A stretch of DNA of 64,000 nucleotides. It comes from Candidatus Latescibacterota bacterium. Lineage in GTDB: Bacteria > Latescibacterota > UBA2968 > UBA8231. Each line of letters opens with the position of its first letter. Positions within the stretch are counted from its first letter, which is position 1. The position numbers were made by a program, and so were the translations under genes. Below, in pieces: positions 22,334 through 35,249 of the stretch. The DNA lies in assembly GCA_964291625.2 (NCBI GenBank), contig OZ220090.1, positions 896,001 to 960,000 on the forward strand. Reading direction: 5' to 3'. The notes under the pieces were generated by a model. The model had not been told where the DNA came from, did no database searches, and was given only the letters and a program-made list of their open reading frames with translations.

Positions 22334-22349
22334 TGCAAGAATTGTGCCG
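22334..22349 (-). promoter_or_regulatory. sigma54 (-24/-12) promoter of the DUF4956-HlyD-TolC-VTC-CotH operon
   Basis: Minus strand CGGCAC-AATTC-TTGCA (consensus TGGCAC-N5-TTGCW), 34 bp upstream of the ATG. Confidence 0.8.
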
Positions 22350-22436
22350 TCCACGAGGCCCCGGCCGCGGTACCGCCCCGGCCTGTCTCTGGCTGCACCC
22401 CGGACCACTGGCAGGAGACAGTCCCATCGGTGGTCC

Positions 22437-22520
22437 GTCCGGTTCTCCGGGACGACTCCGTCTTTCCGCTTTCCTGGACGGGCCTTCGGCCCGGTCGGCG
22501 CTCCGTCCGATTCTCCGGAC
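22437..22520. promoter_or_regulatory. Putative enhancer (UAS) palindromes GTCC-N8-GGAC
   Basis: TTCC-GCTTTCCT-GGAC (22464-22479) and GTCC-GATTCTCC-GGAC (22505-22520), 41 bp apart. Weaker copy at 22437-22453. Confidence 0.65.
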
Positions 22521-22652
22521 CGGGGCAGCAGCCGGCCCGGGGCATGGCAGACCGCCGGCCCCACCGGTGCCGGCGCGGCCGACTTGCAGACGATCAGGGT
22601 GCTGAGGGGGCGAGGGAGACGCAGAGGCCGCGTCTCCCCGGGACGCGGCGGG

Positions 22653-25600
22653 CTACTCGCGGGAGGCCGGGATCACCTGGAGGAGCTGGCGCTGCCGCAG
22701 CTCTCCATCCTCCAGGTACACACAGACGTACAGTCCAGGAGACACCAAGCGGCCGCCGCGGTCGGTTCCATCCCAGGCGAGGGTGCGGCTCTCCGGACCT
22801 GCGGTCAGTCTCTCCACCAGCTCGCCCGCCGTGTTGAAGATCCGTATCTCGACTCTTCCCGAGCCACGGAACCAGAAGGTCGCGGGCTGCCCCCGCGAAA
22901 CCGGATTGGGATAGCTGTAGACGGCGATCTGCTCGTCGATCACCTGCGCCGTCAGGATCACGGTGCGGGTGCCCCCGTCCCCGGTCAGGCTCAGGGTCTC
23001 CTCGATCCTCTCCGACTCCCCCGACAGACCGCCGTCGATCCCCGACCGGAAGAGGATCCACACCTCCGCCGTATCCCCGGGCGCCAGGCTGAAGGACGAC
23101 AGTTCCGCGGCGAACTGCCGGGTGTCGTCGACTGTCCGGGGATCGAGATTGAGCCGTGCATCGCCGCGGTTGTGCACCGGCAGGCTCTTCCACAGGGAGT
23201 CGCCCACGGAGACGGCGCCGAAGTCCAGGGTATCGGCAAGGACTTCCAGCACGGGCGCCACTCCTGTGATCGTGAACGACACCTGGATTGTCGGCTGGTC
23301 GGGATCGCTGCTGTCTATGGTCAGGACACTCGAGTCCGGGCCGAGCCGATCGGGAGAGACACGGATCGTGATCTCGCTGGTCTCCCCGGGTTCCAGGGGC
23401 CAGGGAAAGCGGTCCTCCAGAGCCTCCATGGGCTCACCGTCCCAGAGGAATCCCTCGATGACCAGCTCTGCCTCACCCGTGTTGGCAAGGGTCAGGACCA
23501 CCGGGACGGCCTGATCTGCCCGGACCTCGCCCAGTTCCACCAGGCGCGGCTCGACTTCCAGGCGCGGCTTGATTCCCCGCCCCCTCAGCGGCACGTCGAG
23601 GAAGCTCTTGTCAGGGTCGTTGCTGGTCAGGCCCAACGATGCCTCCACAATACTGGCGTCGCGAGGACTGAAGGTGACCACCACGGTCGTATCCCTCCCC
23701 GGTTCCAGGTCGAAGGACTCGGGCGATACCTGGAATTGCTCATCCGTCGTCGCTGCGCCCACACCCAGCAGACCTGTGCCGCTGTTTTCCACGACCAGGG
23801 TCTCTTCGCCGGACTTGCTCACGGCCACTTCTCCGAAGAAGACCGTATCGGAGACGGATACCTGGATCTGCGGCTTCTGGCTGCCGGCTTTGAGATCGAC
23901 GATGATCACCGGCGCATTCGGATCGTTGGTCGTGAGCACCAGCGCCGCCTCAATCCTCGGGTAGTTGGCCGAAGGATCGAATTTCAGCTCCATGACCAGA
24001 CTGTCACCCGGACTGATGCTGACCCCGGGGCCGGGGCGCTCCACCTCGAACTCCGGTTTGGTGGTGATGAGCTGGTTGATCACCAGATCGGCCTCGCCCC
24101 GGTTGTAGAGCGTCAATTCCCTGTGGACGGGCTCGCCGGAGATGCCGAAGTCGACGCGATCGGAGGACAGACCGATCTCGGGGATCAGCTGGGACATGAC
24201 AATGCTCACGCTGTCGCTCTCGAGCCCCGGGGCGGCGACCTTCACCGTGGCGATTCCGGGCAGGGTGCCCGCGGTAAAGGAGACGCTGGCCATGCCCTCC
24301 ACCACCACGGCGCTGGACACCTCCAGGTCGCCCAGATCCTCGGGACCTTCGACAATCGAGAAGGAGATCTCCGTACTGTTGTCGGTCTTGAGCCGCCCCC
24401 CGAGGGAGTCCTGCACCACGGCGGTCAGGATCGACGTGTCCTCGCCGTTGGCCCGGATGCTCGCAGGTGAGGCGGTGAGGACGATCTTGAACCGGGTCAG
24501 GACGATACCGAAGGCCCCTCCCCCGACGGTGCCGGCGTAGACTTGCCGGGGACGAGAGAGCCCCATGGCCACGGAGAGCACATCGGGGTGGGTCAGACCC
24601 GGCTCGATGGGCTGCCAGCTGTCGCCGCCGTCCAGGCTGCGGAAGACCCCGCCGCGGGTGCCGGCGTACAGGTGTGATGAATCGGCCGGGTCCGCGACCA
24701 GGGCGCGAATCGACGAAGAGGTCAGCCCCGCGTTGATCCCCTCCCAGGTGAGGCCGTCGTCCAGGCTGCGGAAGATCCCGCCGTCGGTTCCGGCAAAGAC
24801 GGCACGGCCCGCCCCATCCAGGGCCAGGGCCCGCACCGCCAGCCCCCCCATGCCGGCGCTCGAGGGCGTCCAGGTCGAGCCCCCGTCCCCGCTGCGGTAG
24901 ACCCCCTCCCCGGTGCCGGCAAAGACAACCTGCCCCCCCGGATGCAGGGCCAGGGCCCGCACCGACAGGGCAGCCAGCCCCTGGCCGTCGGACGGCCAGC
25001 TCAATCCCCCGTCGAGGCTGCGGAAGACCCCCTTCTCCGTGCCCGCAAAGACGGTCGTCCCCGTCGCCCCCGCCGCCAGGGACTGCACGGTCAGGGTATC
25101 CAGCGCCTCGGCCGCTGACGACCAGGTCGAGCCGCCATCGAGGCTGCGGAAGACTCCGCTGCGAGTGCCGGCGAACATCCGCAGAGGCGAACCCGGGTCG
25201 ACCAGGAGCGCATGGACGTCCAGCTCGGCCTGACTGCGCGTCCAGGAAGCGCCCCCGTCGAAGCTGCGGAAGATCCCGGACTCCCCCCCCGCGTGCAGGC
25301 GCAGTGCGTCGGAAGGATCGACGGCCAGGGTGCGCACCGACATGGCTGACAGACCGGTGTTCGCCTCCTCCCACCTCGTCCCCCCGGCGAGGCGGAACAC
25401 CCCGGCCCGGGTACCCGCATACAGCCGCGAGCCGTCGAGGGAATCCAGCCACAGGGCACGCACGGGTACCGTGGGCAGGCCCTCGTCGAGAGCGGTCCAG
25501 GAAGCGCCCCCGTCGAGGCTGCGGAAGACCCCGGACCCGCCCGCCGCGTAGAGCCGCAGGTCGTCGGAGGGGTCGACGGCCAGTGCCTCGACCGCTGACA

Positions 25601-34936: not shown

Positions 34937-35004
34937 TGTCGTCTCCGCGTGCCGGCGTGGACCGGGATCCATGGGTGAGAGCGTCTGCATCGATTCGGCA
35001 AGTT

Positions 35005-35020
35005 AGCAACAAGCGTGCCC
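35005..35020 (-). promoter_or_regulatory. sigma54 (-24/-12) promoter of the pseudo-caspase operon
   Basis: Minus strand GGGCAC-GCTTG-TTGCT. Confidence 0.78.
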
Positions 35021-35062
35021 GCCAGAAACCGGCCGAAAACGGCCAACGGCGGGGCATCTACC

Positions 35063-35118
35063 GTCGGCTTTTCCGGACAGAGCGGCCCCAAGTCGGCCGT
35101 CTGTCCGATTTTCTGGAC
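35063..35118. promoter_or_regulatory. Putative enhancer (UAS) palindromes GTCC-N8-GGAC
   Basis: GTCG-GCTTTTCC-GGAC (35063-35078) and CTGTCC-GATTTTCT-GGACAG (35101-35120), 40 bp apart. Confidence 0.65.
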
Positions 35119-35249
35119 AGCTGGAGCAGGGGACCCGCGCCGGGCCGACGCTCCGGCTTGACCGTTCCGGCGGAAACGGCCTGTATCCGGGGGATCAGCG
35201 CCGGAGACCCGAGCCGCCGGACAGGGAAGATGCTCGCCGCCAGGAAGCC

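Follow-up and report, generated by a model that had tools for sequence, protein, structure and literature searches.

Paired 16-bp repeats upstream of sigma-54 promoters and a candidate STAND-fused activator in a Latescibacterota genome

Two operons and their promoter regions

We analyzed a 64,000-nucleotide stretch of the genome of a Candidatus Latescibacterota bacterium (contig OZ220090.1, forward-strand positions 896,001 to 960,000), hereafter the window, whose first letter is position 1 of the coordinates used below. The window is part of a 5.91-Mb genome with a GC content of 70% in two contigs. It contains two neighboring operons, and all genes relevant here lie on its minus strand. The signaling operon (~34938 to 22653) comprises five genes, g1 to g5, the second of which encodes a sigma-54 activator, and the output operon (22300 to 15778) comprises five genes in the order DUF4956-HlyD-OEP-VTC-CotH. 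Each operon is preceded by a sigma-54-type promoter and, farther upstream, by two 16-bp inverted repeats. We focused on the relation of these repeats to g2, which an earlier note on the same DNA had proposed as the activator acting at both promoters.

Promoter A (GGCACAATTCTTGCA, 22334–22348, minus strand) precedes the output operon, and promoter B (GGCACGCTTGTTGCT, 35005–35019, minus strand; -24/-12 class) precedes the signaling operon. Both have the form GGCAC-N5-TTGCW, as the earlier note had reported, and its ranges of 22334–22349 and 35005–35020 proved one base too long each. The GG and GC elements of both promoters are exactly 10 bp apart, in agreement with the sigma-54 pattern TGGCAC-N5-TTGCW, and the base preceding the GG is C or G, not the T of the consensus. 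The predicted transcription starts lie near 22324 for promoter A, 24 nt before the ATG of the DUF4956 gene, and near 34995 for promoter B. A scan of 15500–35400 found no sigma-70 promoter-like sites or terminators between the operons.

Upstream of promoter A, the distal site A1 (GTCCGGAGAATCGGAC, 22505–22520, minus strand) starts 172 bp before the first G of the promoter and is a perfect GTCC-N8-GGAC palindrome, and the proximal site A2 (GTCCAGGAAAGCGGAA, 22464–22479, minus strand) carries one mismatch, ending in GGAA. Upstream of promoter B, the distal site B1 (GTCCAGAAAATCGGAC, 35103–35118, minus strand) starts 99 bp before the first G and is likewise perfect, and the proximal site B2 (GTCCGGAAAAGCCGAC, 35063–35078, minus strand) carries one mismatch, ending in CGAC. 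From start to start, the paired 16-bp sites are 41 bp apart in A and 40 bp apart in B. Two palindromes 40–41 bp apart had been claimed for each promoter, and this reading stands, as do the four plus-strand spacers quoted for them, which were exact; the description of both pairs as GTCC-N8-GGAC holds for the distal members, each proximal member departing from it by one base. A possible weak third site, A3 (GTCC-N9-GGAC, 22437–22453, minus strand), was rejected: it lies 26 bp from A2, out of helical phase, and is degenerate in the alignment with G002 and G006, the two genomes with the closest relatives of g2 described below.

Two other strings were recorded near these elements. A near-palindrome (CCGTTTCCGCCGGAACGG) lies within a 33-bp block (GATACAGGCCGTTTCCGCCGGAACGGTCAAGCC, window 35150–35190) that shows almost no change in G002 and G006 and is located between the B sites and a divergent S15 peptidase gene (35250 onward); it may be the site of another regulator. 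A weaker motif-like string (GTCCAGGAAACCGGCA, window 34313–34328, plus strand) lies inside g1, had no partner site in our scans, and is probably due to chance.

Neighboring genes of the signaling operon adjoin each other or share a few bases, consistent with transcription from one promoter. Gene g1 (31886–34938), whose start was placed at the ATG behind GGAGA, encodes a protein with a signal peptide, a caspase-like domain, PEGA, one transmembrane segment, and a cytoplasmic STAND/AAA ATPase (Pfam matches: Peptidase_C14, PEGA, AAA_22, and nSTAND6). Gene g2 (29830–31860) encodes the sigma-54 activator, in which an N-terminal AAA_35 NTPase is followed by a sigma-54 AAA+ domain in the center and, at the C-terminus, by a putative Fis-type helix-turn-helix (HTH) with the recognition helix SRSRLYDL. 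According to Pfam, g3 (27931–29825) encodes a secreted protein with caspase-like and PEGA domains, g4 (26333–27934) a secreted protein of no Pfam family, the likely start of which overlaps the g3 stop codon (ATGA), and g5 (22653–26336), the last gene, a protein with a BNR/sortilin-type propeller, Ig-like (ASH/HYDIN) repeats, and a FlgD_ig tail. Just 3' of the g5 stop codon, a perfect 12-bp stem-loop with no T run (22613–22639, minus strand) may mark the end of the operon; its fold was not significant in comparison with shuffled sequences (z = -1.3).

In the window, the frame of g3 is split near 28617. Contigs of the runs X1, X2, and X3 have one extra A behind 28617, which would join the frame at 28554–29825 to that at 27931–29061, containing a PEGA-like tail, with g3 ending in the ATGA overlap with g4. 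The 1-base difference in the window is likely due to an error of assembly or to a frameshift specific to the strain.

The N-terminal 300 residues of g1 were 38% identical to g3. In the alignment with metacaspase-4, g3 has SGRG in place of SGHG, and g1 has SGRG at the same aligned position. The His of SGHG is the catalytic His expected of Peptidase C14; Arg stands in its place in both proteins, and the caspase-like domains of g1 and g3 may be inactive binding or sensor domains. A BLASTP comparison of the ATPase domains of g1 and g2 showed that they have the P-loop region alone in common (E 0.011), which is neutral with respect to their pairing.

The output operon begins with a DUF4956 membrane protein (21617–22300), followed by an HlyD-type membrane fusion protein (20525–21613), an outer membrane efflux protein of the OEP/TolC family (19212–20531; its start is taken as the internal Met before the signal peptide), a polyphosphate-polymerase-like VTC domain protein (18452–19225), and a secreted CotH kinase-like protein with two lamin-tail domains (15778–18474), all assigned with Pfam.

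Genome-wide arrangement, motif, and cassette copies

The bare GTCC-N8-GGAC palindrome is not enriched in the genome: 206 copies were counted in 5.91 Mb, compared with ~243 expected from base composition, and the presence of two in a 64-kb window corresponds to the chance level. On this count, the window might simply hold two GC-rich palindromes that happen to lie near two sigma-54-like strings. The spacing and the context of the sites contradict this explanation. Exact sites with a partner of at most one mismatch occurred six times at an offset of 41 bp and twice at 40 bp, with 0.41 expected per offset, so that the peak at 40–41 bp comprised 8 observed cases vs 0.8 expected. The string GGCAC-N5-TTGCW occurs 25 times on both strands of 5.9 Mb; among the 47 matches to GGCAC-N5-TTGCN on both strands, six (A, B, and the four intact copies of a cassette described below) have a site pair within 300 bp upstream, and the remaining 41 have none (0/41). 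Arithmetic from the observed frequencies gives ~0.001 full arrangements per genome, as opposed to the six observed, four of which are cassette copies and hence duplicates of one sequence rather than independent cases. The genome-wide scan suggested in the earlier note thus gave a divided answer: the palindrome itself is not above expectation, and the full arrangement is enriched (6 of the 47 promoter matches). Together with the conservation of the sites and their independent recovery by a matrix built from foreign sites, these data make a chance origin practically negligible; the enhancer-promoter arrangement is non-random.

We derived a consensus, GTCCGGAAAACCGGAC, from 17 sites, which consists of 6-bp inverted arms around an A-rich center; the center has the same orientation relative to the promoter in 16 of the 17. 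The start-to-start spacings across loci were 21, 31, 32, 33, 40, 41, and 42 bp, corresponding to approximately two, three, or four helical turns, as expected of dimers bound on one face of the DNA. A scoring matrix was made from the 11 foreign sites alone and used to scan 11.8 million positions. All four window sites and all ten cassette sites were recovered within the top 30 matches, with B1 ranking 13th. Eight other matches of at least 17 bits that were inspected (C1:4214731, 3026560, 4476774, 2882496, 4612671, 4628494, and 2120571; C2:790977) had neither a partner at a phased spacing (21, 31–33, or 40–42 bp) nor a promoter and were treated as chance matches.

The same order of elements recurs as an enhancer-promoter cassette, present in five copies on contig C1, which is not the contig of the window. 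Four copies are intact (C1:3930835, 1932629, 1665299, and 3232086), and the fifth (C1:3649738) has kept the site pair with a broken -12 element. The copies were 88–93% identical to the query copy, and the shared stretch starts at the distal site and reaches 86–537 bp downstream. The genes behind the cassettes encode secreted proteins, including three VIT or VIT-vWA proteins with FlgD_ig tails and a 1302-aa LDL-receptor-repeat/NHL propeller protein; the gene behind the damaged copy encodes a 2077-aa LRR protein. A leader of ~100 nt between the cassette promoter and the ATG (e.g., L005 3210–3312) is kept among the copies, and the cassette with this conserved leader had no match in Rfam at E ≤ 1. 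The proposal that 15.8–35.1 kb of the window form one regulon is supported as far as it goes and is too narrow, given the five further cassette copies on the other contig. The putative regulon probably includes six or more promoters whose sigma-54 match is intact, one further promoter in degenerate form, and a wider set of secreted-protein genes.

A family of copied promoters raises the question of whether the shared pattern is a duplication relic, left when one promoter segment or small mobile repeat was copied, in which case the repeats would not have to function as an enhancer at present. The cassette does form a genuine repeat family, its identity extending over 90–540 bp from the distal site, and one copy has a broken -12 element. 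Promoter B and the cassette promoter also have similar spacers (GCTTGTTGC and GCTTCTTGC), and when the stretches between the paired sites of A, B, and the cassette were aligned with gaps, 15 of 25 bases were shared. Among A, B, and the cassette, however, long exact matches are limited to the sites and the -24/-12 elements, and both A1 and A2 fall, as judged by eye, within the longest invariant blocks of the intergenic alignment of the close orthologues. Moreover, unrelated intergenic regions in five other genera contain this motif with identical orientation and helical phasing, which copying within one genome cannot explain. We therefore regard a mere relic as very unlikely.

Some further repeats were observed around the cassettes. 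A separate repeat of ~200 bp lies between the leader and the gene in the copies at C1:3930835 (L001 ~12300–12500) and C1:1932629 (L003), at +340 to +537 from the distal site of the cassette. It also occurs solo at C1:773008–773206 and C1:4751972–4752172 with ~91% identity and may be a small mobile insertion. Three tandem paralogues of 530–554 aa with near-identical N-termini (MPTRLHGLL...) are located at L001 ~1–6700 (C1:3918000–3924700), downstream of a cassette-preceded VIT gene and on the opposite strand.

The activator g2 and its relatives

A genome search identified rpoN as a 508-aa open frame with the sole Sigma54_DBD match (E 9.9e-62) and returned 19 sigma-54 activators, among which g2 alone has the recognition helix SRSRLYDL. 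The Sigma54_activat domain of g2 (PF00158; E 3.7e-70; residues 396–562) has an intact Walker A motif (GETGTGKE) and a GAYTGA loop; the Y variant of the GAFTGA loop can work. The N-terminal AAA_35 match (E 5.4e-13; 48.9 bits, cut-off 27; residues 40–263) contains a P-loop (GARQTGKTS) and a Walker B motif (VVTLDEFE), both read in the sequence. The start of g2 at 31860 agrees with that of a 676-aa database relative, P0001. The C-terminal 50 residues of g2 align by eye with those of its relatives, and HTH_8 was detected in four of its six distant relatives (G048, G046, G023, and G015) as well as in P0002 and P0003.

Among 27 database relatives of the N-terminal domain of g2, three have a sigma-54 domain; the others have TIR, OmpR-type winged helix, CHAT, PP2C, kinase, or WD40 domains. 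Relatives of the nSTAND2 domain, which occupies the N-terminus in the distant relatives of g2, have a sigma-54 domain in 34 of 120 cases among the matches listed, and the sources name some of these nSTAND2-sigma-54 proteins as Latescibacteria or Gemmatimonadota. Among the open-access papers listed in literature searches on these terms, none contained 'STAND NTPase' together with a sigma-54 term, none contained AAA_35, and no description of this activator class was found.

Relatives of g2 were searched for in 40 related genomes and then in all 168 genomes available for the phylum (E ≤ 1e-95), and were found in 8 of the 167 genomes other than the window's own. All eight carry SRSRLY[DE]L, and in all eight genomes the motif either precedes the operon or comes immediately after the activator gene, followed by a sigma-54-like promoter in seven and by a weaker one in G048. 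In G002 and G006, the protein is 90–91% identical to g2 and the whole 20-kb layout is kept. Against a mean column identity of 76–78% in the intergenic alignments, A1 is invariant at 16/16 positions in both genomes and A2 is identical in G006 and changed at one position in G002; B1 reads GTGCAGAAAATCGGAC in G002 and GTCCGGAAAATCGGAC in G006, with one change each. Promoter A is unchanged in G006 and has the sequence GGCACGGTTCTTGCC in G002, and promoter B is invariant in both as GGCACGC.T.TTGCT. The comparison of orthologous loci for which the earlier note had called thus found both promoters, A1, A2, and most of B1 preserved, and B2 preserved by half.

The six distant activators (G015, G005, G048, G046, G044, and G023) have SRSRLYEL helices and come from five other genera, with one paralogue from the same genus. 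Sites of the GTCCGGAA type lie within ~200 bp behind the activator stop codon in all six; four have an exact GTCC-N8-GGAC and five have two sites, G044 having one clear site. A sigma-54-like promoter follows the sites in five, and G048 has a GGTGC-N5-TTGCT variant read by eye. As a control, the other 18 activators of the window's genome were examined, and a single exact site within 300 bp downstream was found for one of them and a pair for none. The promoter behind the distant activators precedes genes for an ATPase-PEGA membrane protein, DUF5683, an nSTAND2 ATPase, and an nSTAND2-PP2C phosphatase, and in G048 it precedes FG-GAP/ASPIC proteins with secretion tails. This gene content suggests constant partners, namely the STAND-fused activator and a PEGA membrane ATPase, and variable targets, namely exported proteins. 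In other genera (L021 11828–17847, L020 1489–7600, L047, and L048), the activator was seen to head a conserved cluster comprising an ATPase-PEGA membrane protein, DUF5683, an nSTAND2 ATPase, and an nSTAND2-SpoIIE phosphatase.

Within the genus, the activator cluster and the output operon co-occur in the same 3 of 10 genomes, and the VTC gene of the output operon is present in exactly the three that have g2. When 61 genomes of the family were scanned with a pattern for paired sites, seven pairs were found in G000, three convincing pairs in G002, two convincing pairs in G006, one pair in G015, and one cassette copy in G004, along with a few coding-like hits; the reversed pattern, used as a control, gave seven hits overall. 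Paired sites were absent from those genomes of the genus in which no g2 relative was found, the single-contig G007 among them, with the exception of G004. An AAA_35-like match in G004 was considered as the activator of its cassette and rejected, as it is an ATPase without a sigma-54 domain. G006 contains a second DUF4956-HlyD-OEP-VTC operon (L053, G006:C5:704000–713000), the VTC protein of which is 76% identical; this operon directly follows a 746-aa gene and has neither a site nor a sigma-54 promoter in front of DUF4956.

These distributions bear on the possibility that the repeats are real regulatory sites read by another protein, such as one of the other 18 activators, a repressor, or an architectural protein, and that their closeness to g2 is incidental. 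Among those 18 further sigma-54 activators encoded in the genome, one is located ~5 kb from the cassette at C1:3232086, on the other strand, and in G004 a cassette copy is present with no g2 relative detected. Yet the motif accompanies SRSRLY[DE]L activators at the border of the gene itself in all eight other genomes, which represent six genera, and none of the 18 other activators has that helix or a site pair at its border. The absence of paired sites from g2-less genomes such as G007 also points to g2. A different reader of the sites is thus an unlikely explanation, though a less remote one than a duplication relic.

The proposed circuit and its meaning

Taken together, it is highly probable that the 16-bp repeats are upstream activating sites of g2, which would drive its own operon, the output operon, and the cassette genes. 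The link between g2 and the paired sites put forward in the earlier note is supported by several lines of evidence, among them the following: g2 is the sole activator of 19 with SRSRLYDL, the motif is present in 8/8 relative genomes, and the matrix of foreign sites recovers the sites of this genome. Autoregulation by g2 is suggested by the position of promoter B ahead of the g1-g2 operon.

Binding, activation, feedback, and signaling from g1 to g2 can be pictured as follows, as predictions from gene content and site arrangement. Dimers of g2 would bind each repeat through the putative C-terminal Fis-type HTH, and two sites located two, three, or four helical turns apart on the same face of the DNA would nucleate an AAA+ ring. 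The ring would contact the sigma-54 RNA polymerase at the -24/-12 promoter and open the promoter with ATP. From promoter B, g2 would drive its own five-gene operon in a positive feedback loop; from promoter A, it would drive the DUF4956-HlyD-OEP-VTC-CotH operon; and on the other contig, it would drive the genes for VIT/vWA and beta-propeller surface proteins behind the four intact cassettes. The trigger is probably relayed to the STAND domain of g2 from g1, which would span the membrane with its caspase-like and PEGA domains outside the cell and its ATPase inside, and oligomerization of the STAND domain would license assembly of the ring.

Several observations weigh against this circuit. At promoter B, G002 and G006 have kept the left half of B2 alone (GTCCAGAAA) and lost the right half, and 32 bp present between B2 and the promoter in these genomes are absent from the window. 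The start of the proximal site relative to the promoter differs widely, at -131 in A, -59 in B, and -78 for the cassette. Being duplicates of one sequence, the five cassette copies amount to a single independent case, and the like spacers of promoter B and the cassette promoter suggest that the resemblance of the promoters may partly be due to common descent rather than selection. The putative HTH of g2 does not reach the Pfam threshold for HTH_8 (E 0.001). Because g2 has an N-terminal AAA_35 domain and the six distant relatives have nSTAND2, these proteins are not simple orthologues over their whole length. The cassette copy in G004, a genome that is 83% complete, stands without a g2 relative. 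Finally, contig pieces of the metatranscriptome library X3 cover both operons at depths like those of the DNA runs, and show neither transcription starts nor expression.

In its general layout, with tandem upstream activating sites ahead of a sigma-54 promoter and the activator encoded nearby, the system is of a classical kind. NtrC/glnAp2, NifA, DctD, XylR/DmpR, PspF, and ZraR likewise act at sigma-54 -24/-12 promoters, with two inverted-repeat sites placed tens to ~200 bp upstream on the same helical face, and NtrC-type activators combine an AAA+ domain with a C-terminal Fis-type HTH, as predicted for g2, and are often encoded beside the operon that they control. The system is new in three ways, namely its undescribed motif, its STAND NTPase regulatory domain, and its repeated enhancer-promoter cassette. 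The motif GTCCGG-AAAA-CCGGAC is not known to match that of any activator, no motif search having been made. In the regulatory position, g2 has a STAND-type P-loop NTPase (AAA_35, with nSTAND2 in its relatives), whereas NtrC-type activators have receiver, GAF, PAS, or V4R domains, and the loop of g2 reads GAYTGA in place of GAFTGA. In MalT and AfsR/SARP-type regulators, nucleotide- and ligand-dependent oligomerization of a STAND NTPase likewise switches a fused DNA-binding output; those proteins act at sigma-70 promoters through LuxR- or OmpR/BTAD-type domains, whereas in g2 the STAND domain is fused to a sigma-54 AAA+ motor, so that two NTPase modules would have to assemble in one protein.

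In the relevant passages of Kaur, Iyer, Burroughs, and Aravind (2021, eLife 10:e70394, PMC8195603), nSTAND2 forms the center of two-gene systems whose effectors vary, and the two STAND proteins of such operons are proposed to form a hetero-multimer. The relatives of g2 likewise carry nSTAND2 and lie beside further nSTAND2 genes. In contrast, the effectors named in those passages are GT4 and HEPN, with no mention there of a sigma-54 domain; here, the output is a transcription motor with a defined, putative DNA site, and the partners carry PEGA, caspase-like, or PP2C domains. For the output operon, the pertinent part of Whitfield et al. (2020, PMC7112168) describes an accessory set of CotH, polyphosphate polymerase, and DUF4956 next to Gram-positive pel loci. 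The same CotH, VTC-type, and DUF4956 families are contiguous in the window, where they differ from the set described in that part in being joined to an HlyD-OEP export pair, in a Gram-negative-type genome, behind a sigma-54 promoter, and with no pel genes nearby.

More tentatively, and as a possibility that is less likely than not, STAND-fused sigma-54 activators may constitute a distinct, undescribed class of enhancer-binding proteins that couples an NLR-like switch and a portable cassette to a surface-remodeling program. If so, an NLR-like switch, triggered by a membrane partner that senses the exterior through pseudo-caspase and PEGA domains attached to an ATPase, would license the assembly of an AAA+ motor, and a portable cassette of ~120–220 bp would recruit a new surface-protein gene wherever it lands. 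The outcome would be inducible remodeling of the cell surface in a symbiont (the metagenome is labeled as sponge-derived), using parts otherwise seen in bacterial conflict systems. For an uncultured lineage, whose relatives are named Candidatus Latescibacteria by the sources, these data provide a testable circuit of one activator, one 16-bp motif, and six promoters plus one that is degenerate. They point to a family of sigma-54 activators in which a STAND NTPase would take the regulatory place of the usual sensor domains, and they would tie the widespread, unexplained CotH-VTC-DUF4956 set to a defined signal pathway, with the cassette as a compact example of how a regulon may grow by the copying of cis-elements.

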